Shown here in pieces: positions 1 through 12,193 of a DNA stretch of 64,000 nucleotides. The stretch's first letter is position 1. Every line of letters begins with the position of its first letter. The notes beneath the pieces are model-generated. The model saw only the letters and a list, made by a program, of their open reading frames with translations, did no database searches and was not told where the DNA came from. Position numbers and translations under genes: made by a program. The DNA is from an uncultured Candidatus Micrarchaeota archaeon (GTDB taxonomy: Archaea > Micrarchaeota > Micrarchaeia > Burarchaeales > Fermentimicrarchaeaceae), in NCBI GenBank assembly GCA_963760615.1, contig CAVXDX010000014.1:71999-135998 (forward strand). The letters run 5' to 3'.

Positions 1-330
1 AAACGTTTTCGGAATGCAAAATGTTATCTCGGGATATCATACGGTAAAACAAAACCTACATTAAAAAGAGGTATAATACACCAGATTAGTGGCCAAACAT
101 TTTGGCATTTTGTAAGTGGGAAAAAGAACTTTTATAAGGAGATAATCGAACCGATAGGATACAAAGCGAAAGAACTTAATCATGAATTCAATCATAATAA
201 AGCCAGATTGATAAATAGACTTACTCGTGAATTTTCAAATGATTTTTGCGATAAGGACGGAAGGATACTTTGGGATAACATAGTTGAATTTAATTCGGGT
301 AATATGACAAGAATGACTTTGCTGACTTAA
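1..330 (+). CDS. 3' end of a type II restriction endonuclease, EcoO109I/PmeII-like (5' part outside window)
   Basis: Own translation of frame 1, open from base 1 to TAA at 328-330: ...YLGISYG...ISGQTFWHFVSGKKNFYKEIIEPIGYKAKELN...FCDKDGRILWDNIVEFNSG, resembling the C-terminus of EcoO109I-family enzymes (GQxFWxxxSG, IIEPxG, W..IV.FNS). Not in the ORF track. Confidence 0.65.
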   Translation, partial: KRFRNAKCYLGISYGKTKPTLKRGIIHQISGQTFWHFVSGKKNFYKEIIEPIGYKAKELNHEFNHNKARLINRLTREFSNDFCDKDGRILWDNIVEFNSGNMTRMTLLT

Positions 331-358
331 TTAATTTATGCGCAAAGCCGAGAAATTT

Positions 359-568
359 TTATTTGTTTAGACTCGTTTTCTTTATAAAAACCCTGAATCC
401 TCTCCTTTCTATCTCAATCTTCTCTCTTGCCTGCATTTCTTGGATGAATTCCAAATATTTCTTCACCGTCCTCGGGTGCAGCTTGGAAGCTCGGCAAAGC
501 TTGTTGAACGTGACCGGCTCATCCGAGAGAGCCGCCATGATCTTCTCCGCAATCTCGAGCTGCACCAT
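359..568 (-). CDS. Small winged-helix/HTH DNA-binding protein
   Basis: 69 aa; VTFNKLCRASKLHPRTVKKYLEFI is a helix-turn-helix pattern followed by a basic beta-wing (IEIERRGFRVFIKK). Confidence 0.65.
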   Translation of the reverse strand: MVQLEIAEKIMAALSDEPVTFNKLCRASKLHPRTVKKYLEFIQEMQAREKIEIERRGFRVFIKKTSLNK

Positions 569-638
569 AAGGACACCATTAAACGGCCTGCTTAGTTAGG
601 TGCGCCAAGGGATAATTGCCTTGCCGCAGACAGGCTCG

Positions 639-689
639 TTCCTAGGAAATCAGTTGCGGAAGTCTTTCCTGGGAAGCGGTTCCGCGGAA
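639..689. promoter_or_regulatory. Three TTCC-N2-GGAA palindromes in a divergent intergenic region (putative operators)
   Basis: ttcctaggaa 639-648, ttcctgggaa 666-675, ttccgcggaa 680-689, between the HTH gene (-) and ORF 697 (+). Confidence 0.45.
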
Positions 690-696
690 GTGGAGC

Positions 697-882
697 GTGT
701 CTTGCAGGCATGATACGAAACTGCCGAATTCGGCACAAAGGGATAAATCCACTCGGCACGCCACTCGAGGCATGACAGAAGAAGAGGTTGACAGCCAGCT
801 GCCTAGGTGGTACGTGGAGCTGAAGAAGGCTTACAAGGAACGCTTGGAAGGGCAGAAGAAAGATGGGCTGGGAAAGTCGTAA
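697..882 (+). CDS. Small hypothetical protein
   Basis: 61-aa ORF with a charged helical C-terminal half; no motif recognised; start uncertain. Confidence 0.4.
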   Translation: MSCRHDTKLPNSAQRDKSTRHATRGMTEEEVDSQLPRWYVELKKAYKERLEGQKKDGLGKS

Positions 883-964
883 TTGAGGGAAAGGAGTATA
901 CGGTTTAAATCGGTTTTTTGCTTATAGCTACATCGCATTAGCAATAGCAAGAGGTGATGGTTTT

Positions 965-1537
965 ATGAAATGCCCTAATTGTGAGAAAGAAATAACAGAT
1001 GAGAGAGCGAATTATTGCGGCCTATGCAGTTATTGGCTGAAAGAACCGCCATACAAGAGCTATTTGGAAAGATTACACGAAGAGGGCAAGCACGAAATAA
1101 CTAAAGTTGTAATCCCACTGCTGCATGAGAAATATGATTTTTTTGAAAAGTTGAGGAAAGAACACCCCATGCAATACAAGCAGGTAAGGGAATCCAGGGA
1201 TTTTTTTGAACTAGGGTTTTTGTTCGGGTTTTACGAGGGGATAGCCGACAGGATGAAAGAGGAAATCAAAGAAAAGGAGGATAAAGTGGGTACGAACCCG
1301 CCACCAAAGAGAGATCATATCGAGGTACCAAGTAGCGGGAAAAGCGGTTTTGAGATTGTCAAGCTTTACAACTACCCTGAAAAGAACCATGCTATAATCC
1401 GGCTTAAAAAAGGCACCATAGAGAACCTGGGCTTGCCGTATGATGTGCAGTATAACAAACCAATGTTGGCAGAGGTCAGGAATGGCGTTTTGCTGCTTAA
1501 GGTTATCAAGGAGTTGATTCATGATGAGTTCGAGTAG
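965..1537 (+). CDS. Zinc-ribbon protein, possible C-terminal AbrB/SpoVT-like domain
   Basis: N-terminal CPNC...CGLC; SD-like GAGGTGA upstream; C-terminal HAIIRLKKGTIENLGLP...LAEVRNGVLLLKVI resembles a swapped-hairpin fold (weak). Confidence 0.6.
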   Translation: MKCPNCEKEITDERANYCGLCSYWLKEPPYKSYLERLHEEGKHEITKVVIPLLHEKYDFFEKLRKEHPMQYKQVRESRDFFELGFLFGFYEGIADRMKEEIKEKEDKVGTNPPPKRDHIEVPSSGKSGFEIVKLYNYPEKNHAIIRLKKGTIENLGLPYDVQYNKPMLAEVRNGVLLLKVIKELIHDEFE

Positions 1538-1682
1538 TAAGCAGGAAGTATATACCTTACATAGAGCAATATCGCACGACTATGCTTCGGATTAGTGTTT
1601 TACAAGTTCTCAGTCTTTTTTATGCGTATTTCGGTCATTCCAAGCAAAAACAGATTTAAACAACTTCAAATAATATGTACAT

Positions 1683-2300
1683 ATGAAAAAAACGGATTTC
1701 AGAGAGACTAGGACGCAAGTCACGAAGAAACGACTTAGCAATGTTTATCAGCGGATTCAGGAGGCATTGGAGAGCAATTGTGAGAACCTCACTCTTGAAC
1801 GAATAGAAGAACTTAGAACACAATTTATAGAAGAGTATGCGGATCTTATTGACTACTCATTCGACCGTGCTCTCAGAAAAATACTGGGAAGTAAGACGTT
1901 GATAGAGTTGGGATATGTAGAAGCAGAAACAAGAGATTCGGAAGGTGCTGACTACGAAGCATTAGCATTAAAATATGCAGGTCTTCCCCCGCATCCACTT
2001 TCCAATTTAACTCCCGGCATGAATCGTATAAATAGTCTGGAGCTGACTATAATAGAACTCAACGCGCCAGAATATTTTGAATTTGAAAAAGGACCCTACA
2101 AATTCATCCGCGGCCGAGTTAAGGACTCTTCCGGGGACTTTCCCATATTATTTTGGGGTGACCAAGGTGATAGAATACACATCGGAGACAAAATAAAAAT
2201 AATAAACGCTTATGTCAAAAAATATGAAGACGACGAGCGAATACACATAAAAGGGGGACCATTTCTGGTTGTTGCAAAAAGAAGCCTTATTTTGCCATGA
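1683..2300 (+). CDS. OB-fold (RPA/SSB-like) nucleic-acid-binding protein
   Basis: C-terminal IRGRVKDSSGDFPILFWGDQGDRIHIGDKIKIINAYVKKY matches the archaeal RPA/SSB OB-fold pattern (D.SG.I.L..W...GD.I.I.NAYV). Confidence 0.7.
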   Translation: MKKTDFRETRTQVTKKRLSNVYQRIQEALESNCENLTLERIEELRTQFIEEYADLIDYSFDRALRKILGSKTLIELGYVEAETRDSEGADYEALALKYAGLPPHPLSNLTPGMNRINSLELTIIELNAPEYFEFEKGPYKFIRGRVKDSSGDFPILFWGDQGDRIHIGDKIKIINAYVKKYEDDERIHIKGGPFLVVAKRSLILP

Positions 2301-2301
2301 T

Positions 2302-3513
2302 CTAAACCGGAATCGCAACTCCGTTTTTGATAAGCTTCTCCACAACCATCTTCTTGAACTCGGGATCATTCATCAATTTATTCATTATCTCGTCAGCATT
2401 TTTCCTTTCCTCCTCAACCTGCGCCATCATTTGCGCGTTCATCGGAGTTCCGCAGCGCAGGCAGAACTTCGCCGCCGGGGAATTCTTCTCCCTGCAGCGG
2501 GGGCAGAAGCAGACCTTCAGCTCCTCCTCTTTTTTATCTTCGGGCTTCGCCATGCCCTGCAACGCCAGAAGCGCTTGGTCAACATCCCGGCCGGACAGAT
2601 GAACATAAACGGAAGCCATGTCGCTGTTCTGGGTCCAGCCGAAGTACTCCTTCATCTGAGCTTCCGTGAGCTTGGAGGCGAGGAATGTGGCCCTGGAATG
2701 GCGGAACAGGTGCGGGTAGATCTTCTTCTTGATTCCTGCCTTCTCTGCCAGGGTTTCGAGCACCTTGTAGACCGACCGGTGCATCGCGGCAAGGTTTGTC
2801 GCGTGGTTGTTGTTCGAGCGGGGTGGCCAGAGCACGGCTTCCGGGTCTTTCGCCCCTTCGTAATGCTCGAGCCACGATGCCAAGGCAGGTGCCGAGCTGA
2901 TGATCCTCACGCGCCTGTCGCCGGTCTTGCCTGTCACCCTCAAGGTCGCGCCGTACTGGTCGAAAGCGACGTTCTTCACCCTGAGGGAAAGCAGCTCGCC
3001 GATGCGGCAGCCTGTCTCGTACAGGACAAGCACCATGGCCTTATCTCGGGGCGTCTTTGCAGCCTCCACCATCCTCAGGACTTCCTCCTCGGTCAAGAGG
3101 GATTCGGGCAACTTGTGGCTGTGGTTCCTCACTCTCGGCCTGAGCCAGGAGACCTCGCGGGGCATCTGCTCATCATCCCCTTTGAGCCACTTGTAGAACA
3201 TCTTCAAAATGACCTTGAAGTCGTACTTGGTGTTTTCCGCGTACTCCTTGCTTTCGATGCTGCCGACCAGCGCTATGATGTCTTCCTTGGTAGCCTGTTC
3301 GAAGGGCTTCCCGAGCCAGCCCGACAGCCTGCGGAGGCAGTAGATAAGCTTCACAACACGCACCTTGGTGAACCCCTTGGCCAGCCAGGTGTTGGCGAAT
3401 TTGAGTATGAGCTGCCTGTTCTGGGGCAGCACTGCCTCGTCCTTATCCAGCCTGGCAAGGGCCGCATCCAGGTCCGTTGTGCTGCCGTATATCGAGCCTC
3501 CGCTGATTCTCAT
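2302..3513 (-). CDS. Tyrosine recombinase/integrase with C-terminal zinc ribbon
   Basis: Catalytic residues in order: TGCRIGE (R), TGKTG (K), HLFRHS (H-x-x-R), FGW (H/W), SVYVH (Y); N-terminal core-binding domain; C-terminal CPRC...CLRC. Confidence 0.95.
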   Translation of the reverse strand: MRISGGSIYGSTTDLDAALARLDKDEAVLPQNRQLILKFANTWLAKGFTKVRVVKLIYCLRRLSGWLGKPFEQATKEDIIALVGSIESKEYAENTKYDFKVILKMFYKWLKGDDEQMPREVSWLRPRVRNHSHKLPESLLTEEEVLRMVEAAKTPRDKAMVLVLYETGCRIGELLSLRVKNVAFDQYGATLRVTGKTGDRRVRIISSAPALASWLEHYEGAKDPEAVLWPPRSNNNHATNLAAMHRSVYKVLETLAEKAGIKKKIYPHLFRHSRATFLASKLTEAQMKEYFGWTQNSDMASVYVHLSGRDVDQALLALQGMAKPEDKKEEELKVCFCPRCREKNSPAAKFCLRCGTPMNAQMMAQVEEERKNADEIMNKLMNDPEFKKMVVEKLIKNGVAIPV

Positions 3514-3589
3514 GGTAATGCCTCTGGGAACAGGTCTATATTTTGCTTGGTGCAGGATTCCGCACTTTCGTGTCTATATGCCCTTTTCC

Positions 3590-3648
3590 ACCTTGAGCTT
3601 AATCCTCTGGTTGCGGTCGGAGCACTGAGCCATAGGCTCAGGTTGCCA
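3590..3648 (+). repeat. Core-repeat site R1 (degenerate arm A + core + arm X)
   Basis: accttgagcttaatcctctggttg-CGGTCGGAGCA(3614-3624)-ctgagccataggctcag-gttgcca. 28 nt (3614-3641) identical to R4; 24 nt (3604-3627) identical to R2. Confidence 0.9.
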
Positions 3649-3767
3649 CCCGCCCAAGCGATTTTGCCTTGTTCCTGAGGGTGGTTCTGAGTGGCAAGGT
3701 TTAAATAGACTGCTACGACTCTTCGTACGTTATTGGAAAGCGCTTGATTTAACAACCAGGGGATATG

Positions 3768-3785
3768 TCATTTCCGCGGAAATGA
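3768..3785. promoter_or_regulatory. Perfect 18-bp palindrome TCATTTCCGCGGAAATGA
   Basis: Self-complementary; contains the same TTCCGCGGAA as 680-689; lies between the integrase upstream region and the Fic stop codon. Confidence 0.5.
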
Positions 3786-3811
3786 GGTGACCACACTCGT
3801 GGATTTTGTAG

Positions 3812-4753
3812 TCACCTTTTCTTGAGCATCTGTTTGAGCGCACGGTATTCTTTCAACATCAGTTCAATAGTTGGCCGAAGGTTGTGGTTTTTCTCGTAAG
3901 CCTGCAGTGCTGCGTAGTACTGCTGTCGGTTCTTGAGTTCGATATTAATTGGCGGCATCTTGTGCTGTATAAGGATGTTGTTCAGCAGGAGCCTTCCAAC
4001 CCTCCCATTTCCATCCTGGAATGGGTGAATATTCTCAAATTGATTATGGACTACTGCAGCTAAAACTAGTGGCGAATAGCGGTTTTTGTTTTTATCATAC
4101 CATCTGACAAGCTCCAGAAGCAGGACTCGGACACGTGTTGAAGGCGCTCCCCGGTGGACTATTCCTCCGCGTCCGTCCGTTACCACAACTTCCACTCCAT
4201 TCTCCCTTAACTTGCCGGCAAAAGGCTTTGAGTTTTCAAAAACAATCCGATGCAGCTCAAGAATGAGCGGCAGCGAGAGATGATCACCGGTTTTCCTTAT
4301 GAATTCGATGGCCTTTGCTACCCCGTAAGTTTCCGAGATGTCTTCTTTTGATTTGTCCGGCCATTTATTCTTTTCGAGTATCTCCGCAACTTCTTTTGGA
4401 TCTATGGTGGAGCCTTCAATTGCGTTGGTGCTGAATGTGAAAGCTTCCGTGAACTTTACCCAGTCTTCATCGGAAAGGTGTGCTATTTTTATGTGCGCCT
4501 TTGCCTCCAGGGTCCTTAATTCCTCAAGCTCTTCGGATGATAAAACAGTCTCAAATGGATCGGAAATTTGCCTGCTTGCATCCACCCGTGCGCTAAGTTT
4601 TTTCTTTGCATCCTCTATACGCCGTTGCAACTCACTCTCGCTGAGGTTAGACCCCAGGTATACCCTAAGCTTTCTGACCTTTCCAGCCTTTCTGATGGAG
4701 TGGGCAAGATAGTACTTTTTTATGCCCTTTCCTTCACGGATCTCTAAGTGCAT
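3812..4753 (-). CDS. Fic (Fido) domain protein, class II-like
   Basis: Canonical HPFQDGNGRVGR motif; upstream TNAIEG fits the (S/T)xxxE(G/N) inhibitory helix. Confidence 0.93.
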   Translation of the reverse strand: MHLEIREGKGIKKYYLAHSIRKAGKVRKLRVYLGSNLSESELQRRIEDAKKKLSARVDASRQISDPFETVLSSEELEELRTLEAKAHIKIAHLSDEDWVKFTEAFTFSTNAIEGSTIDPKEVAEILEKNKWPDKSKEDISETYGVAKAIEFIRKTGDHLSLPLILELHRIVFENSKPFAGKLRENGVEVVVTDGRGGIVHRGAPSTRVRVLLLELVRWYDKNKNRYSPLVLAAVVHNQFENIHPFQDGNGRVGRLLLNNILIQHKMPPINIELKNRQQYYAALQAYEKNHNLRPTIELMLKEYRALKQMLKKR

Positions 4754-4880
4754 AATGTTATTGGGTGACTACTATTTATAAATATTTGCATTAAAGGTGA
4801 CTACTAGTTGGTAAAGCTCCTCGCTAGTCTGTGAAGAATTAGGGTCCACACGGGTTTTAGGGGGCACATATTCCTGCATA

Positions 4881-4922
4881 TGGCAACCTGAGCCCTTGCC
4901 TCTGGTTGCGGTCGGAGCACTG
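4881..4922 (+). repeat. Core-repeat site R2 (arm A + core)
   Basis: tgGCAACCTGAGCCCTTGCCTCTGGTTGCGGTCGGAGCActg; 37 nt (4883-4919) identical to R5; arm A forms a GCAACC-t-GAG/CTC-t-GGTTGC hairpin. Confidence 0.92.
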
Positions 4923-5080
4923 CCGGAGATCGGAACTGGAAATAATGCCTAGTTTCAAGCCAAAAAGAGGGAAGTGGGCGGAAGGGGTTGCTCCGGAAAA
5001 TGGTCTGCTCTGCCGGAAACTCTGTGTTTTGTTGCATTTCTGGAGCATGTTTAAATATTGGAAAATGCATAAACTAATCC

Positions 5081-5986
5081 ATGGTCTTTAGAGAGAAGGA
5101 ATCCAGAGAACTTCCTGCTTTCGATAAGATTCAGATAAAGGGTACTCTCTCGGAAAGATTCAAGGATCATTTTGAGGATCATCCATTAAAAATTCTTGAC
5201 ACCAACTTCTATAGGAATAAGTTCGCCTTAGAATGGTTTGACAAGATAGTCCACGATCTTAAGAAGACTCAGAGCAACATAACCATAAATGAGATAGGTC
5301 TTGGCATAGAAGACAAGATAGGAAAATATGAAATAAAATTTCGCCTTGGAGAAATGAGATTAAAGCTGAAGGAAATGCTGGCACCGAAGAAAACAACCTA
5401 TGAGACTTTCGAACTGTTGAATATTCTGAGAAATGCAGGCATAAAACCAGAACAGTTCAGTCTCTATGCAATGGATATAAGGGAGGATGTGCTGCTTGCA
5501 GTGAAGTCAACAAAGGTGCTGAAGGTGGTTACTTCCAAGCTGCTTGCTGACATGCCAACCGATGTCCTGGAGAATGAAAGCGCTAAGAGACTTACGATTG
5601 AGGAGAATGAATACGCTAAGAAATTCTTCCCTGATCTACAAGGCAAGAGTAGGAACAGTAAAGAGCCCTCGCTCGCTAGGGTACTGGAAGTGCGGATACC
5701 ACGGAATTATGCCAATAGGGTTGTGTGTCCTGAACCGCTTGACATCACGAAAACTCCTGCTCCAGTGAAGGCGGACATAACCTTTTCCTACATATTTTCC
5801 TGCCCGGAGAGGGAAGAGCGCTTTTCCAATCTTGCAAAAAGCACAAAGCCAGGTGGATACATTATAACTGAACTTAGTGAGGAGATTAGCCCTGCTTTCT
5901 TGGAGAAAATTGGCGTAGAAAAAGTATTTAGTAACCCTGGTCATATAATGGAGGGGTGCGTCTACAGGGTCAAGCCAACAGCATAA
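5081..5986 (+). CDS. Divergent class I SAM-methyltransferase-like (CheR-like) protein, paralog 1
   Basis: Motifs INEIGLG, YETFEL, LYAMDIREDVL, ADITFSY, LAKSTKPGGYI in the CheR order; similar to 8085-8849. Confidence 0.55.
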   Translation: MVFREKESRELPAFDKIQIKGTLSERFKDHFEDHPLKILDTNFYRNKFALEWFDKIVHDLKKTQSNITINEIGLGIEDKIGKYEIKFRLGEMRLKLKEMLAPKKTTYETFELLNILRNAGIKPEQFSLYAMDIREDVLLAVKSTKVLKVVTSKLLADMPTDVLENESAKRLTIEENEYAKKFFPDLQGKSRNSKEPSLARVLEVRIPRNYANRVVCPEPLDITKTPAPVKADITFSYIFSCPEREERFSNLAKSTKPGGYIITELSEEISPAFLEKIGVEKVFSNPGHIMEGCVYRVKPTA

Positions 5987-6025
5987 TTGTTCTCAGATGT
6001 GACTTTTCTGGGCAATCCTAAGTGA

Positions 6026-6065
6026 GGGGATTTAAGAACTCGTAGACATAAGCTCGGTCGGAGCA
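6026..6065 (+). repeat. Core-repeat site R3 (arm B + core)
   Basis: ggggatttaagaactcgtagacataagctCGGTCGGAGCA; 36 of 40 nt identical to 7832-7871. Confidence 0.9.
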
Positions 6066-6131
6066 ATTTACTTTTATCTGAGTACTCTCCCTTAGCTCAA
6101 CAGAAGAACATGCGTCCCTTAGTGACGTTTT

Positions 6132-6605
6132 TCAGGGGAACACAGTCAAATCCCCAAGACGATTTTTCAGCTCCCCCTGGCAGTATTCAATGCCGTAGAT
6201 CAGAGATGTAACCCACCTTTGGTCAAACTTTCCCCTTTCATACATGCAGGTCATGTTCTTTCCCTGAAGCAGGTTCTTCATCTCCTGGCTTTCATTGGCG
6301 TTCAAGCTTACAAGCGTCTTTGTAAAGATGCAGGATTCAGAGGACGAGTAGCTGAAAGTCCCGACCTCGTCAGTAACGGTTAGATTTATATTCTCGCAAT
6401 TATTTGCCGCTGCGATGAAGCATGTTTCGTCCCCGCAGGTCGCATTTGTTGAAGGTGCAATCGTTAAGTTTTGTGTATTGTTTGTGGAAACATTCTGGGC
6501 AGGAGGGAAAAGTCCACAACAGCCTGCCAAGAAAAGAAAAATTCCTGCCGTCAGCAAATATGCAACTCGCATTTCTATGATTTTTTGTTTTATCATAATT
6601 CTCAC
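6132..6605 (-). CDS. Cys-rich putative lipoprotein
   Basis: Hydrophobic stretch ending FLAGCCG (lipobox-like), N/T-rich linker, multiple Cys; true start probably downstream of 6605. Confidence 0.75.
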   Translation of the reverse strand: MRIMIKQKIIEMRVAYLLTAGIFLFLAGCCGLFPPAQNVSTNNTQNLTIAPSTNATCGDETCFIAAANNCENINLTVTDEVGTFSYSSSESCIFTKTLVSLNANESQEMKNLLQGKNMTCMYERGKFDQRWVTSLIYGIEYCQGELKNRLGDLTVFP

Positions 6606-7639
6606 TTAACAGCTACGGCATTCACGACATCCTTGTTAAGACCTAGTGTTAAAAAAAGCTTTTCACTCCAGGTGCTTGTGTCGGAGGATTCTTTCTGGAC
6701 ATCCATGTCATATAAGCCTCCTTGCCAGTTACCCTTTTCACTGCTCATTTTTCTCATCAACAAGCTGTTATCCGGTTTTGGGAATTTTGAGAAGCCCAAC
6801 TCCTTGGCGAGGTTCTTTTCCATCGCTTCCTTCATGCTCTCGGTTACCGCTCCGCTGTTTAATGCCCTGTCCATATACTCATAGTATTCATGGGGCAGTC
6901 CTTGGGTTTTCTTCAGCTCGGCCATGTCCACGTTTGCCTCGAAGTTGTTTGGATCTGCTTTAAGTATTGCGTTGTATTTTGCCTCGATAGACGGTTCTAA
7001 ATTGTCTATCTGGTCCTGCTTTTGTTTGAGTTCAGCAGCGGTTTGGGGGGTGTTTAAAAGAAGATTCTGAGCCCTTAAAAAAGGGATTTGGTTGCGTAGA
7101 TCGAAATCATTGTTCAAATCGTCGCGTGCGCTTGAAATTTGCTCCTCAGTTGTCAGTTCCGGCGGCTTGCTTGGAGGAATTACGACAGTTGGAGCCGGGC
7201 AACCATTTACAATTCTTCCGCTGAATGTAGTGGAACCACTGCACGAACCTTCTGAATCGCTATACTGCCAGGTGTAACTCCCAGTAAATGTCAAACAATC
7301 TGAGCTAAAGGTCACGTCATAAGGTGATAGTACTGAAGTTCCATAGCCATCGGGAACCGACCTGCCGGGTATATGAAGGACGTTGCCGTCAACTATTCCG
7401 CTAGTCACCCCATGACCGATATCCCCCATCTGAGCATGTTTTAGATTGAACTGTATCGTAATGGTAGGATGAGTAACTATAACCCCGCTTTGGCAATCAC
7501 GTTCATCATCGCTAACATCTACACGCCATTGGGTGGTGCCGGTATATTGATCCCAACTCCAAGGAGGCAGCGAGACCTCGGCTCTAACCAAGTGTATTAG
7601 AAGCAGTGCTGAAATAAGCAGTACAGCAATTCTGGGCAT
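6602..7639 (-). CDS. Secreted hypothetical protein (beta-rich N-domain, Pro linker, TPR-like C-domain)
   Basis: Signal peptide MPRIAVLLISALLLIHLVRA; PAPTVVIPPSKPP linker; ILKADPNNFEA...YMDRAL TPR-like helix pair; stop overlaps the start of the next ORF. Confidence 0.75.
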   Translation of the reverse strand: MPRIAVLLISALLLIHLVRAEVSLPPWSWDQYTGTTQWRVDVSDDERDCQSGVIVTHPTITIQFNLKHAQMGDIGHGVTSGIVDGNVLHIPGRSVPDGYGTSVLSPYDVTFSSDCLTFTGSYTWQYSDSEGSCSGSTTFSGRIVNGCPAPTVVIPPSKPPELTTEEQISSARDDLNNDFDLRNQIPFLRAQNLLLNTPQTAAELKQKQDQIDNLEPSIEAKYNAILKADPNNFEANVDMAELKKTQGLPHEYYEYMDRALNSGAVTESMKEAMEKNLAKELGFSKFPKPDNSLLMRKMSSEKGNWQGGLYDMDVQKESSDTSTWSEKLFLTLGLNKDVVNAVAVK

Positions 7640-7831
7640 GTTAATGCTTTCTGCGTTAATTGTTTAAATATTTACTCCTCGGCAGACGAATTCTGCCAAG
7701 GCGTGCTTTATCCTGTTTATCAAGGTGTCAGAATTTCTAGGAAGGACAGGGTGCTGTTGTTGTCATGCAACTGACATTGTATTGTAATCTGCTCTGCTAG
7801 ATATACTAGACAAAAGCAATTTTAAATGTGG

Positions 7832-7888
7832 GGGGATTTCGGAACTCGTAGACAGATGCTCGGTCGGAGCACTGAGCCATAGGCTCAG
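7832..7888 (+). repeat. Core-repeat site R4 (arm B + core + arm X)
   Basis: ggggatttcggaactcgtagacagatgctCGGTCGGAGCA(7861-7871)ctgagccataggctcag; left arm shared with R3, right arm with R1. Confidence 0.92.
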
Positions 7889-8084
7889 TTCCTCACTTTT
7901 GCGGAATATATTCTTGTTCCCGACATGGTTCAGCCTGTGAGCTTTATAAAGACTGCGTCTATGGAAGCAATTTTGTCATCTAGCTGATAATTTGACCGGC
8001 TTGTTGAATTGGTTGTTTTGTGCCTTGATAATCGGTGTTGTAAAGATGATACTTATTTTAATGGAGAAAGAGTAAGATAACTTA

Positions 8085-8849
8085 ATGACAACCAAGCAGA
8101 AACAGCCCAGCGAGGAGAATTTTAACCAGTTTAGGAAGGAACTGGATAAGAGAGTTTCTCAAGAAATTATGCAGAATCAGAATCAAAATATAGAGAATAT
8201 AATGACCTGGTTTGGAAGGCATCCATGGGCAACCTTGCAATTCGGCAAGAGATTGTCAGAATTCAAAGACTCAAATGAGATAATCAGGGTCAACAACATA
8301 GGCATAGGAATTAGAGGTATAGGGGATGAAGGAGAGCGGGTACCACCTAATATGAAATCTCACTATATTTCGTACGAACCTTTAGAGCTGCTCAACCAAG
8401 CAGCTAAGATTCTGGAGCCAAAACAGCTGATATTTTATGCAGCAGATACACGAATGGATACACTATTGCATCTTAAATCAACAAAAACCGTACGGATGCA
8501 TGAATACCTGCACAGAGAGTATTTCAAGGCATTTTTTCCCGAAGTCTTGCACAGGAAAGAGGGGGATAACATCGCAGTGGATATACCGGAAGAGTGGAAG
8601 GACAGGATAGTCTATCTCAAGCTCAATATCCTAAAACAGCCAGCACCGGTCAAGGCGCATGTAACATTCTCATACATCCTAGACCTTTACCAGAGGCCTG
8701 AGTATTTTGAGAACCTTGTTGCAAGCACGAAGAGGGGAGGCTATGTGTTCTGCGCAGCGGGACCGAGGGATGAAACACTCAAGAAATTAAATGTTGAGTG
8801 GATACACCCCGTGAGATATCCTGAGCCCGGCTTATTGCACCTCAGATAG
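8085..8849 (+). CDS. Divergent class I SAM-methyltransferase-like (CheR-like) protein, paralog 2
   Basis: VNNIGIG, SYEPLELL, FYAADTRMDTL, PAPVKAHVTFSY, LVASTKRGGYV; shares PAPVKA.(I/V)TFSYI and STK.GGY with 5081-5986. Confidence 0.55.
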   Translation: MTTKQKQPSEENFNQFRKELDKRVSQEIMQNQNQNIENIMTWFGRHPWATLQFGKRLSEFKDSNEIIRVNNIGIGIRGIGDEGERVPPNMKSHYISYEPLELLNQAAKILEPKQLIFYAADTRMDTLLHLKSTKTVRMHEYLHREYFKAFFPEVLHRKEGDNIAVDIPEEWKDRIVYLKLNILKQPAPVKAHVTFSYILDLYQRPEYFENLVASTKRGGYVFCAAGPRDETLKKLNVEWIHPVRYPEPGLLHLR

Positions 8850-8888
8850 TATAGTTGATGCTTATTTGAGTGAGGTTTGTGAATAGTA

Positions 8889-8925
8889 GCAACCTGAGCC
8901 CTTGCCTCTGGTTGCGGTCGGAGCA
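8889..8925 (+). repeat. Core-repeat site R5 (arm A + core)
   Basis: GCAACCTGAGCCCTTGCCTCTGGTTGCGGTCGGAGCA, identical to 4883-4919; last copy found in the window. Confidence 0.92.
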
Positions 8926-8958
8926 TTTATGATTTAAGTGCTCTGGCTTGCAATGGGA

Positions 8959-9948
8959 CTACGTACCGAAAGGAAAGCTGCCAACATCTGCAGTATTGGT
9001 ATAGCCCCTCGACTCCCAGTAGCCCTCAACTTCCTTGTCAACAACTTCGATGCTAGTTATCCACTTCGCCCACTTGTAACCGTACTTGTGCTCCGCAACA
9101 AGCTGGAATGGGAAGCCTCTCTCGGGGGGAAGTGTAACATCGTTGATGCCGTATGCCAAGAGCAACCGCTTGCTTCTTATGTAATCCAAGGGCAGCCCTG
9201 TTGAGTAGCCATCGGAGGAATGAAAAACCACGTATGCTGCATTGGGTTTAAGTTTTGCGCGGTCTAGCAGATCTGTCAAGCGGAATCCAGTCCACTTTGC
9301 AGTGAACCCCCATCCCTCCACGCATGGCATATAGGCAACCTCCGAGTAAGCAGGCAGCTTCAGCAGCTCATCATAGGAAAGGTTAAGCTCATCTTCAACC
9401 AAGCCGGTCAGCTGAAGCCTGTAAGCTTTCCTGTCTATGTACTGCGTCCCCAGAATTGCATTGTTCCCCTGCTCGCTGAGGAGAGTTAGTTTCATACCCT
9501 GGAATTCCTTTGCCTCAACCTCTGGCAGAGTGCTTGAAGCTGGAACCTGCAGAGTTTGATTCTGGGGGGCTAACTGCCCAGGCACAGTATTCACCAGACC
9601 GGTAAGTAGCATCACTCCACCCAGAAGTGATGCAAAAGCCAGAGCGGCAGCAAGATAGCCGACCCAGTAGTGCTGCGCAGATCTTTTCTTGGAGACTGCA
9701 ATACTAGCAAGGTTATAAAGAGAAACTAGCAATGCGGCTGTTCCAAGCCAAATGTGGAGTTTGTGCATATCCCAACCAGCAAGGTTAAAATTACCTTCAT
9801 AAATGTAGCCTATGAGTCCGATTATTGCAAAGAAAGCCATTGCATAGCCAATGATTTTGTGCTGGTTTTTATTCTTTACAAAAACAAGCAGGATGGTTAA
9901 AATTGCAGCAATGGCAGAAGGAATCCAGTGCAGCTCTGAGAATACCAT
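8959..9948 (-). CDS. Molybdopterin-dependent oxidoreductase (sulfite oxidase/MsrP-like) with N-terminal membrane domain
   Basis: CVEGW, W.G..L.DLL, DGYSTGLP, LAYGIND..LPPERGFP.QLV...KYGYKWAKW motifs; four N-terminal TM segments. Confidence 0.9.
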   Translation of the reverse strand: MVFSELHWIPSAIAAILTILLVFVKNKNQHKIIGYAMAFFAIIGLIGYIYEGNFNLAGWDMHKLHIWLGTAALLVSLYNLASIAVSKKRSAQHYWVGYLAAALAFASLLGGVMLLTGLVNTVPGQLAPQNQTLQVPASSTLPEVEAKEFQGMKLTLLSEQGNNAILGTQYIDRKAYRLQLTGLVEDELNLSYDELLKLPAYSEVAYMPCVEGWGFTAKWTGFRLTDLLDRAKLKPNAAYVVFHSSDGYSTGLPLDYIRSKRLLLAYGINDVTLPPERGFPFQLVAEHKYGYKWAKWITSIEVVDKEVEGYWESRGYTNTADVGSFPFGT

Positions 9949-9956
9949 GTCTAGGT

Positions 9957-10625
9957 TTACTCCGGCATATGGCTGCCATCGCAGAATGGCTTGTTTGAAG
10001 ACTTACCACAGCGGCATAGAGTGACTCTGTTGCGGATTTCATAGGTGAAGCCATCGCAGGATTCTATTGGAATACCTCCGCGCACCCAGATGGGACCGCC
10101 GGCTCGTGCCTGTGGGTCCTCCACTAGACCGATGGATTTCTCAAATATGGGCTCGATGGCTTTTCCGGTTTTTTTATCATGAACTACAAGTCTGCCAGAA
10201 GGACAGTTTACTGCCTCCTCTATTGCAAGCTTTACAGCATTGTCTTCATTCTGCATCACAAGCTCCCAAACTCCACTTGCTCTGTCGCAGAAACGGGCTA
10301 CGGCGCAAAGTTCCTCGGCATCAGTCAACTTAAGAGCCGGGCCTTGGATTACTTCGGCACGCTTTGCATAAGGCTCTCTGCCCGCAGTCTCAGTTCCGTC
10401 AAATTTCACCTTGGCGTGCGTCCCGTCACAGAATGGCTTGTTTTTGGACTGCCCGCAGCGGCAAAGGTAGTAATTTTCCTGTATTGGGTATTTCTCCCCC
10501 TCGCGCCATTCACAGGGATAGCCGTTGGAGTCAAGTATAATCATCTGTTTTGCAAGCGGTATTCCACCAGAAACAGAGTAAGGCCCATCCTTGATTAATT
10601 TAATCCTATAATTCAATCCAGCCAC
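9957..10625 (-). CDS. CDGSH iron-sulfur domain protein (two CDGSH-type motifs)
   Basis: LCRCGQSKNKPFCDGTH and LCRCGKSSNKPFCDGSH flanking a CAVARFC...CPSG ferredoxin-like segment. Confidence 0.92.
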   Translation of the reverse strand: MAGLNYRIKLIKDGPYSVSGGIPLAKQMIILDSNGYPCEWREGEKYPIQENYYLCRCGQSKNKPFCDGTHAKVKFDGTETAGREPYAKRAEVIQGPALKLTDAEELCAVARFCDRASGVWELVMQNEDNAVKLAIEEAVNCPSGRLVVHDKKTGKAIEPIFEKSIGLVEDPQARAGGPIWVRGGIPIESCDGFTYEIRNRVTLCRCGKSSNKPFCDGSHMPE

Positions 10626-11119: not shown

Positions 11120-12193
11120 TCAGATTCTTTTTTCTATTAGTTTTGCTAATTCGTTATAAGACTGGCTTTCAGCGGAGTAGAGCACAAAGCTGGAGTAAAC
11201 AAACCTAAGTTCATCTTTCGTGATTTCTTTCCTAGTCTCAAGGTACTTTTTCAGAAATAGCTTCTGATTCTCTACAGAATTCAAGGACAAATTTTCTGAC
11301 ATATTACAGACAGATTTGAGCACATTGCTGATATCCTGCCAGTTATTGGGCTTGGAGGACTTGGTTATTTTTCTGTTATCGGTAAACCCACCATCCAGTG
11401 TCAGGTTCTGCCCTATAAGATGCCTGTGGGACAGACCCAGGTTATGCAGTTTTGCTACATTAATTGCCTCGCTTTCCGCCCACCAGCGTGCGTACCTGCC
11501 AACTTTCATCCCTCGCCCCGTGGCAAATTTTTCAAAATCTTCTGGCATTGCCTCGTCCACTCTAATCAACTCAGAGAAAGCTCTGAGATACAACACAGGC
11601 TGAAAATCCTTGAAGATATCCTTCAATTCCTCAACCTTCAGTTTCTTCCCATCCGCCATTATTACTTCGTCAATTATTATTATAGCAATTGGGGCAGAAG
11701 TGTTTATTCCATTTTTAACGAGTATATTGCTTTTTCTCATGTCTTCAAGTGCAGATTTTAGGTCTACCGCTCCCCAGATGACTACGCCGCATTTTTCTAT
11801 AGTCTCCTTATGGGCGAATAGGACTTTTTGGGGCATTCCCACCCCTTTGATGTCTATGTAGCTGTATGTATTCTTGAGTTTGTCTGCGAATACGACGTTA
11901 AAAAAGACTGACCTTCCATGCTCGAGCATACCCTGCATGTCAACGCTTGCATCCTCTGTACCTGCATATTTTCTGCTCCAGTCAACAAAAACGGCCAAAA
12001 TCTTATCAAGAGTCTTGTTGTTTATAGGAAGAGTGTTGAAAAGCTCATAGTTGAATTCGAAAATCCTGCCTTTTACGCGAGCCATCGGTTGATCGAAGAT
12101 CTGCTCCTTTATTATTTTGTTTGCAGGGAGCGGAACCATGCGATTGACACTCTGCTGTATGTCATCGTCAGGTTTCTTCACAAACTTCTCCAT
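11120..12193 (-). CDS. Kinase-fold/SelO(YdiU)-like hypothetical protein
   Basis: YIDIKGVG, NGINTSAPIAII, LHNLGLSHRHLIGQNLTLDGGFTD resemble the SelO LKGxG and GxxHxxxxxxN...D motifs. Confidence 0.5.
   Translation of the reverse strand: MEKFVKKPDDDIQQSVNRMVPLPANKIIKEQIFDQPMARVKGRIFEFNYELFNTLPINNKTLDKILAVFVDWSRKYAGTEDASVDMQGMLEHGRSVFFNVVFADKLKNTYSYIDIKGVGMPQKVLFAHKETIEKCGVVIWGAVDLKSALEDMRKSNILVKNGINTSAPIAIIIIDEVIMADGKKLKVEELKDIFKDFQPVLYLRAFSELIRVDEAMPEDFEKFATGRGMKVGRYARWWAESEAINVAKLHNLGLSHRHLIGQNLTLDGGFTDNRKITKSSKPNNWQDISNVLKSVCNMSENLSLNSVENQKLFLKKYLETRKEITKDELRFVYSSFVLYSAESQSYNELAKLIEKRI

Follow-up and report, generated by a model that had tools for sequence, protein, structure and literature searches.

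Tandem arrays produced by repeated use of a single tRNA site have been described previously (PMC6563490, PMC4383910, 10.1101/2020.12.28.424599). In tDNA islands, the crossover lies at the junction of the T stem and the acceptor stem, the 'J' subsite, and the Islander survey of 3919 islands found arrays of three or more in just 4 cases (PMC4383910). The att sites of Thaumarchaeota elements measure 8–26 bp, and these elements include cryptic plasmid-like ones with Cdc6/Orc1 (PMC6563490). In the tycheposons of Prochlorococcus, newcomers displace older elements inward, and degraded remnants are present (10.1101/2020.12.28.424599). Streptococcal CIMEs accrete to ICEs at the integration site (reviewed in PMC5704250).

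We analyzed a 64-kb window (the whole stretch of DNA under study) from an uncultured Micrarchaeota archaeon of the same genus as Ca. Fermentimicrarchaeum limneticum, with a 1.14-Mb genome. The window contained five exact copies of an 11-mer core, CGGTCGGAGCA, all on the + strand: R1 (3614–3624), R2 (4909–4919), R3 (6055–6065), R4 (7861–7871) and R5 (8915–8925), the last being the final junction. With one mismatch tolerated, approximately 0.6 copies are expected in 64 kb, and at least five copies were reached in 0 of 100 shuffles. ARAGORN detected no tRNA in the window, and an Rfam scan of the entire window returned a single borderline tRNA match, distant from the array. The tRNA origin of the core was revealed only by a core search of the whole genome (1.14 Mb), in which a sixth copy, and no others, was found at the 3' end of tRNA-Glu(CUC), on the same strand as R1–R5. 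The core corresponds to positions 63–73 of this tRNA, comprising the last three T-stem bases, the 3' acceptor strand and the discriminator base. The intact gene (G000:C14:55248-55322) sits outside the window, 20.3 kb upstream of R1 and 16.7 kb left of the window start. The locus shows the displaced-tDNA arrangement of Islander: downstream of an intact tRNA-Glu(CUC) gene, its final 11 nt recur five times on the + strand and never in reverse orientation. Across all copies, both here and in relatives, identity ended precisely at the two edges of the 11-bp core. A search for degenerate additional cores or arms within E1 (the element between the tRNA gene and R1) and past R5 found none in the right orientation.

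These results indicate that the region is very probably a tandem array of modules that entered the 3' end of tRNA-Glu(CUC) through site-specific recombination. The array comprises one 20-kb integrase-bearing element and four integrase-less modules of 1.0–1.8 kb, in the order tRNA / X..E1(int)..A / X..E2(Fic)..A / Y..E3..B / o..E4..B / X..E5..A / flank, where 'o' marks a right arm of no recurring type. E1 is a 20.3-kb plasmid-like element that begins at the tRNA-Glu gene, and its right-hand 3.6 kb occupy positions 1–3613 of the window. It is limited by the tRNA core plus arm X at the left and by arm A plus core at the right, and encodes Cdc6/Orc1, a split VirB4/TraG-like ATPase, two N6/N4 DNA methylases, an SSB/RPA-like protein and the integrase. 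E2 (3625–4908) has a P' arm X-long (3625–3713, +; delimited by a 13-copy alignment), a Fic/DOC protein (3812–4753, −; Pfam Fic, 6.3e-20), a P arm A (4881–4908, +; arm A match) and no integrase. E3 (4920–6054) has a P' arm Y, a 301-aa hypothetical protein (5081–5986, +) and a P arm B (6026–6054); the protein had no Pfam or NCBIfam family match and is a paralogue of the E5 protein. E4 (6066–7860) encodes two hypothetical proteins (6132–6605 and 6602–7639, both −) ahead of a P arm B (7830–7860); for the 345-aa protein, homologues were detected in three other families of the order alone, and the five same-genus genomes searched yielded none. E5 (7872–8914) consists of a P' arm X-long (7872–7956), a 254-aa hypothetical protein (8085–8849, +) with patchily distributed homologues, and a P arm A (8889–8914). 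The distal flank (8926–10625) carries, according to Pfam, a molybdopterin oxidoreductase (8959–9948, −) and a CDGSH/4Fe-4S protein (9957–10625, −).

E2–E5 have a CIME-like architecture: each is bounded by exact cores, and Pfam and NCBIfam searches yielded neither a recombinase nor a transfer gene. In three of the four, one end is formed by an arm type also found in related genomes, and tblastn at E ≤ 10 detected no integrase remnants in any of E2–E5. Streptococcal CIMEs accreted to ICEs are likewise att-flanked, devoid of recombination and transfer genes, and placed in tandem with an integrase-bearing relative at its site. ICESt1 and ICESt3 of streptococci are examples of this type of accretion. 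However, CIMEs are bacterial and usually occur one per ICE, and their co-excision has been shown, whereas co-excision of the modules described here is a prediction.

The E1 integrase (2302–3513, −) is a XerA-like tyrosine integrase of 403 aa with a C-terminal CxxC...CxxC zinc ribbon (Pfam Phage_integrase, 1.3e-21, and Zn_Ribbon_1). It retains its catalytic residues, R170, K196, H268, R271, W293 and Y303 all being invariant among 10 homologues. It is encoded at the right end of E1, with its start codon approximately 100 nt from R1. XerA gave both the best family and the best structure match, the nearest solved structure being P. abyssi XerA (4A8E). A housekeeping XerA, the single-copy dif recombinase of archaea, was nevertheless rejected, because the score against the XerA equivalog NF040815 was 114 bits, below the cut-off of 220, three paralogues in this genome all adjoin tRNA ends, and the zinc ribbon is extra. 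An SSV-type integrase, whose ORF houses attP and is split upon integration, was also rejected, as the 403-aa ORF is unbroken and separated from the core by 100 nt. In its tRNA target, short att site and plasmid-like element with Cdc6/Orc1, the locus resembles integrated elements known from Thaumarchaeota and from other archaea whose integrase genes are intact (non-partitioned), but differs from them in its Micrarchaeota (DPANN) host, the zinc ribbon on the integrase and the integrase-less mini-modules in the array. Two integrase paralogues in the same genome are each found approximately 100 nt away from an 11-nt copy of the tRNA-Leu(CAG) 3' end, again in the 63–73 register, and these loci are an independent replicate of the pattern within one genome. 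A tRNA gene ending 70–270 nt upstream on the same strand was found at 13 of 80 loci of the integrase family. The E1 integrase points away from its core, opposite to the usual family order of tRNA then integrase, which counts against the preferred explanation. A search of IMG/VR for integrase relatives gave a best match of 33% identity and recovered no free attP-bearing element, which likewise counts against that explanation; an exact-protein look-up returned no record with an identical product.

According to the proposed mechanism, the E1-encoded XerA-like integrase would bring together an attP carried by the element (P arm, core, P' arm) and a chromosomal copy of the core, and strands would be exchanged within the 11 bp. 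Every insertion would restore the tRNA end and leave one additional core copy. At each junction, the right end of one module meets the left end of the next, and the arms look reassorted because two modules that differ contribute to each of these hybrids. In this reading, E2–E5 are att-flanked derivatives or satellites that could move only via the E1 integrase, in trans or by co-excision. We infer that the E1 integrase acts on these particular sites and that the cut falls within the core, and the small modules may still be mobile at present.

An earlier note on this DNA had described a left arm A, exact in R2 and R5 and degenerate in R1, and a left arm B common to R3 and R4, and the alignments confirmed both. 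Arm A plus core was identical at 37/37 positions between 4883–4919 and 8889–8925 and 78% identical to the R1 version (3588–3624), which belongs to the integrase-linked P arm of E1 (3569–3613, +). The same 45-nt integrase-linked P arm adjoins the integrase in G003 (a related genome) and L181 (a metagenome contig). Arm B plus core was 89% identical over 44 nt between 6022–6065 and 7828–7871. On the right side, arm X was indeed shared by R1 and R4 (28/28 identical including the core, 3614–3641 versus 7861–7888), but the 'CTG' after R2, previously taken for the start of X, opens a separate conserved arm Y (CTNCCGGAGAT...), which is present in the related genomes G002 and G001. The AT-rich right arms of R3 and R5 both exist but are unrelated to one another, that of R5 being the flank past the last core, where ordinary genes come next. 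All four reported combinations (A+X, B+X, A+AT-rich and B+AT-rich) were recovered.

The full arm X measures approximately 89 nt and is common to R1, R4 and the tRNA-Glu gene itself. At R1, X-long contains a hairpin (CTGAGCC ATA GGCTCAG), a CTTGTTCC block and a TTTAAATA box followed by GACTGC; across 13 aligned copies, conservation occurs in blocks and stops approximately 90 nt from the core. Every sampled genome of the genus has arm X after tRNA-Glu, and the empty site of a related genus (G006) begins with a 13/17 X look-alike. Thus, X may be in part a mimic or a derivative of the native tRNA trailer, and the P'/B' assignment may be blurred if it does.

We clustered the arms of 29 sites and 14 modules from related genomes, so that the counts are not independent. 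With this limit, the left and right arms assorted freely at junctions (p = 0.62), whereas the two ends of each of the 14 modules, likewise non-independent, were linked (X with A in 10/10, non-X with B in 3/4; Fisher p = 0.011). A-arm identity figures for the right end of the Fic module in metagenome contig L176 were left out owing to a MAFFT misalignment. Free assortment at junctions together with end linkage inside modules is what site-specific integration predicts. The free assortment anticipated earlier therefore holds at the junctions and not within modules, which supports serial insertion of discrete modules, rather than arm shuffling among pre-existing sites, as the origin of the hybrids. 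The earlier inference of strand exchange inside the core, giving attL/attR-like hybrids, is supported as the best explanation: identity stops at the 11-bp edges, modules differ at the cores, and a tyrosine integrase stands beside R1. The mechanism itself is well known.

In G006, the site is empty: syntenic tRNA-Val and tRNA-Glu genes are followed after approximately 330 nt by a homologue of window 11392–12055, so that an unoccupied site with conserved flanks, as sought by Islander, is present. Synteny with this site resumes only at approximately 11392 of the window. The left flank was syntenic in 6/6 relatives for which it was fetched; the distal flank differed in every relative, which bears on the original attB flank and counts against the preferred explanation. 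Modules differed between genomes exactly at the cores. The Fic module lies between cores in three genomes, after the integrase element in the present genome and in G003, and after a P-type ATPase module in L176; E2 was 87–88% identical over 1248 nt to its counterparts, and the neighbors differed. The P-type ATPase module occurs alone in G004. Between X and A arms, the cargo comprised Fic, the P-type ATPase, an ABC transporter pair, an AAA_14/DUF4143 protein, an Imm5-like protein and hypothetical proteins. A pattern search of metagenome contigs yielded, among at least 120 matches listed, L075, L169, L176 and L181 as the only genuine ones, and an exact search of viral contigs for the A-arm-plus-core 16-mer gave 20/20 chance matches without arms.

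Inert relics, fragments of one or a few longer elements left by random deletion or duplication, the internal cores having seen no site-specific events, could account for E2–E5 lacking an integrase, for an L181 module from which the integrase has been deleted save its first 11 codons beside the A arm, and for a G003 module in which Fic and an AAA gene share one unit with no core in between. However, five perfect 11-bp cores with complete arms are not expected from random deletion, which would also not place between-genome differences exactly at cores, and the cargo of the modules is unrelated; we consider such relics improbable. As the source is a metagenome-assembled genome, in which repeats can cause mis-joins, an assembly or binning artefact was also weighed. 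An independent Logan assembly of run ERR10755944, reached by exact-protein look-up, contains E3-E4-E5 in the same order on a single contig, three of its four contig ends coincide exactly with the positions expected from the 37-nt repeat at k = 31, and matching architecture occurs in G003, G002, G004 and L176, which makes an artefact barely conceivable.

Integrons, including archaeal ones (PMC9668308), share with this locus a divergent tyrosine recombinase, short and mostly single-gene units between recombination sites, and accessory cargo. A canonical integron (IntI plus an attC cassette array) would match this layout and the GCAAC...GTTGC inverted pair within arm A. Nevertheless, the integrase scored far below the cut-offs of the IntI models (TIGR02249, 51.8 bits against 265; NF011946, 38 against 435), showed no IntI-specific domain and matched XerA best. 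By attC we understood a structure-conserved imperfect hairpin with R''/L''/L'/R' boxes and crossover in GTTRRRY. Single-strand DNA folds gave only local, arm-specific hairpins and none common to the five sites, and R2 (z = −0.5) and R3 (z = +0.35) folded no better than shuffles. AAC/GTT boxes are absent from B-type sites, the invariant stretch is a tRNA end at which crossover would occur, arms flank the core on both sides, and gene orientation is mixed. As neither IntI nor attC was recognized, a canonical integron was ruled out, its probability being very slight.

An active integron-like gene-capture platform, in which the resident XerA-like integrase routinely excises, shuffles and inserts integrase-less single-gene cassettes in trans, with the tRNA-Glu end as a universal crossover site, has a better claim, albeit a doubtful one. 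The cassettes would be kept as functional units with conserved arms (X, ~90 nt; A, ~45 nt). The unrelated cargo between these arms, the block-wise rather than uniform arm conservation and the lack of integrase remnants agree with it, the neighbors of the Fic module vary across three genomes, and the integrase is adjacent to and divergent from the first core, as in integrons. Conversely, the L181 module is a plain deletion derivative, cassette genes lie in both orientations, circular forms were not found, and the sample is small and phylogenetically narrow. Decay of full elements with occasional core-by-core deletion predicts the same pattern.

The preferred reading, serial site-specific insertion at tRNA-Glu(CUC), places the locus near Islander tDNA islands, with which it shares an intact tRNA gene, same-orientation displaced 3' fragments, a tyrosine integrase, a regenerated target and re-use of the site into arrays. 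It differs from them in that only one of five modules (E1) has an integrase, four modules measure 1.0–1.8 kb and the identity block is only 11 bp. E2–E5 would be discarded by the Islander filters, and standard island finders miss such units, because an integrase and at least 2 kb are required. This genome encodes no cognate integrase for the B/Y-type modules, which counts against the preferred reading. As with tycheposons, the genome is streamlined, elements with variable cargo stack at a tRNA gene, and a partial tRNA is the sole separator; the domain of life and the integrase lineage are different, and the small modules here keep both conserved arms without integrase remnants.

The 'reassorted' repeat thus reduces to textbook integrase chemistry at a tRNA gene, and brings no new mechanism. 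The novelty lies in the Micrarchaeota host and in the integron-like, single-gene, integrase-less modules with conserved arms. The S0-to-R5 array spans 25.6 kb, approximately 2% of the ~1.1-Mb genome, and with two tandem elements at tRNA-Leu(CAG) the integrated DNA reaches approximately 64 kb, or 6%. Four of its five modules are tiny integrase-less units of one or two genes, and the array, in a tiny-genome archaeon, is unusually cassette-like. If mobilized in trans, these modules would act as functional analogues of integron cassettes that rely on another recombinase and site, and would offer a route for accessory-gene flux in symbiotic archaea. We tentatively raise the possibility, which we rate as rather unlikely, of a non-homologous integron-like cassette system in Micrarchaeota, perhaps also in other DPANN, in which a zinc-ribbon XerA-like integrase would use the last 11 tRNA nt as a universal crossover site, and single-gene integrase-less cassettes with conserved P/P' arms would be captured, stacked and exchanged in trans. 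If true, genomes of ~1 Mb would gain a dedicated accessory-gene locus.

The core 11-mer CGGTCGGAGCA was found in five exact copies in the window (R1 to R5, at 3614, 4909, 6055, 7861 and 8915), all on the + strand; about 0.6 matches were expected even at one mismatch, and no shuffle reached five. Across the whole 1.14-Mb assembly there were six forward copies and 0 reverse copies, and the sixth (G000:C14:55312-55322, outside the window) lay at the 3' terminus of the tRNA-Glu(CUC) gene, which is 20.3 kb upstream of R1. The core comprises the last 3 bases of the T-stem, the 7-base 3' acceptor strand and the discriminator A (tRNA positions 63-73), and the positions matching it constitute the 'junction' subsite of tRNA-targeting integrases (PMC4383910). 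For ~90 nt beyond tRNA-Glu, homology extended to the sequences that follow R1 and R4. Among all sites, in this genome and in its relatives, identity ended at both edges of the 11 bp, so that strand exchange must fall within the core; the two cleavage positions are predicted to be 6-8 bp apart. At R5, an imperfect inverted copy of the core (TGCTCTGGC) follows after 13 nt and pairs with it, and the resulting hairpin (window 8915-8950) was more stable than any at the other four sites (z=-3.4); because it lies just beyond the stop codon of a convergent molybdopterin oxidoreductase gene, this hairpin may be a terminator.

The earlier note had described an invariant core with reassorted left (P) and right (P') arms, and this description was accurate. 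The repeat finder confirmed arm A (A plus core 37/37 identical between R2 and R5, 78% at R1), arm B (B plus core 89% identical over 44 nt between R3 and R4) and arm X (core plus X 28/28 identical between R1 and R4). Three details required correction: X was ~89 nt long; the CTG after R2, read as the start of X, belonged to a separate arm, Y, which recurs in other genomes; and the two members of a single 'AT-rich' right-arm class were mutually unrelated. Full-length X was conserved in blocks (a hairpin, CTTGTTCC, and TTTAWAWA then GACTGC), with conservation stopping ~90 nt from the core. Arm A contained the box GGCAACCTGAGCC, whose exact reverse complement occurred in one X subtype, so that an A-core-X attP, if circularised, would have its core flanked by a 13-bp inverted repeat, with a third CTGAGCC copy directly after the core. 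We infer that these conserved blocks are binding sites for the integrase or an accessory factor, or a promoter.

Modules were defined as the intervals between cores, each with a P' arm at its left end and a P arm at its right end. E1 extended 20.3 kb from the tRNA gene to R1 (P' X, P degenerate A) and encoded Cdc6/Orc1, a split VirB4/TraG-like ATPase, two DNA methylases, an SSB-like protein and an integrase. The remaining four, in which no integrase remnants were found, were E2 (R1 to R2, 1.28 kb, X and A), carrying Fic; E3 (R2 to R3, 1.14 kb, Y and B), encoding a 301-aa protein; E4 (R3 to R4, 1.80 kb, another P' arm and B), encoding two proteins; and E5 (R4 to R5, 1.04 kb, X and A), encoding a 254-aa paralogue of the E3 protein. 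The E3 (5081-5986) and E5 (8085-8849) proteins shared 35% identity over 161 aa and had no Pfam or NCBIfam match; their homologues were patchily distributed, with four in the source genome and others at different loci in 3/5 same-genus genomes. The motif GGTGAC(C/T)AC, possibly an operator, was present on both sides of the Fic gene, as an inverted pair on the downstream side (window 3785-3825) and, on the upstream side (window 4764-4809), as a direct pair with a spacing of 32 nt.

The tyrosine integrase ORF (2302-3513, - strand) starts 100 nt from R1. Besides its Phage_integrase domain (1.3e-21), the product has a zinc ribbon at the C-terminus and, weakly, a SAM-like N-domain. An alignment of ten homologues showed no variation at the catalytic R, K, HxxR, W and Y or at the four cysteines of the zinc ribbon. 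Its top NCBIfam model was archaeal XerA, at a score of 114 below the cut-off of 220, and its nearest solved structures were XerA proteins; integron-integrase NCBIfam models scored far under their cut-offs. The family was abundant in Micrarchaeota MAGs, often in multiple copies per genome, and the host belongs to the same genus as Ca. Fermentimicrarchaeum limneticum Sv326. In 13/80 family loci from other MAGs, the integrase was preceded on its own strand by a tRNA gene ending 70-270 nt before it; the E1 integrase has the reverse of the orientation usual in the family.

A canonical integron was rejected, as the IntI criteria failed, the sites shared no attC-like fold and gene orientation was mixed. 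R2 and R3 folded no better than shuffles, and B sites were without AAC/GTT boxes; the archaeal integrons described so far possess IntI and attC (PMC9668308). An active integron-like cassette system, a less probable reading, is favoured by the occurrence of unrelated cargo between identical arm types; neither circles nor alternative junctions were retrieved.

Other tRNA genes of the source genome also had displaced copies of their ends. Contig C8 encodes two integrase paralogues, and ~100 nt from each is a copy of CACCCCCTGCA, the terminal 11 nt of tRNA-Leu(CAG), which cover positions 63-73 just as the core does in tRNA-Glu. The two paralogues belong to a two-element tandem array outside the window (G000:C8:36234-74562), in which the tRNA gene was followed by one paralogue (66% identical), 24.6 kb and a core copy, and then by the other (52% identical), 13.6 kb and a further core copy; of its three sites, the second and the third had mutually homologous right arms. 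This array is best read as a within-genome replicate of the tRNA-Glu array. At tRNA-Asn(GUU), a 1.0-kb module without an integrase, containing a 250-aa ORF, was bounded by 20-nt repeats of the tRNA end (G000:C8:138641-139757, duplicated on contig C9). The arm after tRNA-Asn (GATTTTACGACGG...) was the Z arm also found after tRNA-Glu cores in G003:C4 and in the metagenome contigs L181 and L169; a single arm type thus accompanies cores from different tRNAs. The tRNA-Leu(UAG) gene had a distant downstream copy of its own 3' end.

The left flank (tRNA-Val, tRNA-Glu and 3 kb) was syntenic in six relatives, and the distal flank differed in every one. In G006, from a different genus of the same family, a homologue of window 11392-12055 lay ~330 nt after the tRNA gene; this locus is an empty site, and by comparison with it ~28 kb of the source genome is an insertion. 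X followed tRNA-Glu in every sampled genome of the genus, and the G006 site opened with a 13/17 look-alike of X. The element arm X may mimic the native tRNA trailer, and the original block of identity may have extended further than the present one.

Within the genus, the tRNA gene was followed in G003 by an integrase module and a Fic+AAA module, each running from X to A, and then X; in G002 by an ABC transporter pair between X and A, and then Y; and in G004 by a P-type ATPase between X and A, and then the flank. On metagenome contig L176, an ATPase module of the G004 type was followed first by the Fic module and then by the flank. The Fic module was 87-88% identical in three genomes with differing left and right neighbours, and these changes coincided exactly with cores. 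The integrase-less module of L181 retained the first 11 integrase codons beside its A arm, indicating that at least some integrase-less modules are deletion derivatives.

Several further sites were observed. In G002 (Sv326), two tRNA-Glu core sites with B-like and A-like left arms (C1:452952 and 453621) enclosed an Imm5-like gene 35 kb from the tRNA-Glu gene and in opposite orientation; this pair may record an inversion that had one of its endpoints within the array. In L027:2898-2989 (G001:C18), two cores were only 81 nt apart, and the 70 nt between them were made up of a Y arm joined directly to a B arm, an 'empty' module without cargo. The tRNA-Glu genes of two other genera (L037:8840-8894 = G008:C25; L038:8559-8615 = G009:C20) were interrupted in the region of the T-loop by ~27 nt of inserted sequence that is probably a non-canonical intron, and were not called by ARAGORN.

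The free assortment of arms proposed in the earlier note was examined in a sample of six genomes of the genus plus four metagenome contigs, which supplied 29 sites and 14 modules. At junctions, left A versus other was independent of right X versus other (5/10 versus 1/6, p=0.62). Within modules, arms were linked, X occurring with A in 10/10 and non-X with B in 3/4 (Fisher p=0.011, which overstates independence, given the relatedness of the genomes and the orthology of some modules); with distinct cargo counted by hand, without a script, the values were ~7/7 and 3/4, which would give p ~0.02. The combination of freely assorting junctions and linked module ends is what marks discrete units that were inserted by crossover in the core. 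The note's placement of crossover in the core was also backed by identity ending at the 11-bp edges and by the cross-genome changes at cores. Random decay of one element is an unlikely source of the array, since it leaves unexplained the five perfect cores with complete arms and the genome-to-genome boundaries at cores. An array order created by misassembly is likewise unlikely, given that the E3-E5 order was the same in an independent Logan assembly of ERR10755944, that 3/4 contig ends in that assembly fell exactly where the 37-nt repeat predicts, and that relatives share the same array design. The Fic contig of that assembly broke at window 3609, where no genome repeat of at least 30 nt accounts for the break. 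This hints at a co-occurring variant with GGTTG, core and X in common and a difference at 3608, which could reflect strain heterogeneity or an alternative junction.

Arrays arising from repeated use of one tRNA site are documented in bacteria and archaea (PMC6563490, PMC4383910). Tycheposons of Prochlorococcus show like stacking, with partial tRNAs between elements (10.1101/2020.12.28.424599), and CIMEs are att-flanked integrase-less units adjoining an ICE (PMC5704250). The present array therefore belongs to a known kind of system. It stands out for its host lineage, for a core of 11 bp, for a XerA-like integrase with a zinc ribbon and for four mini-modules that standard island finders would reject.
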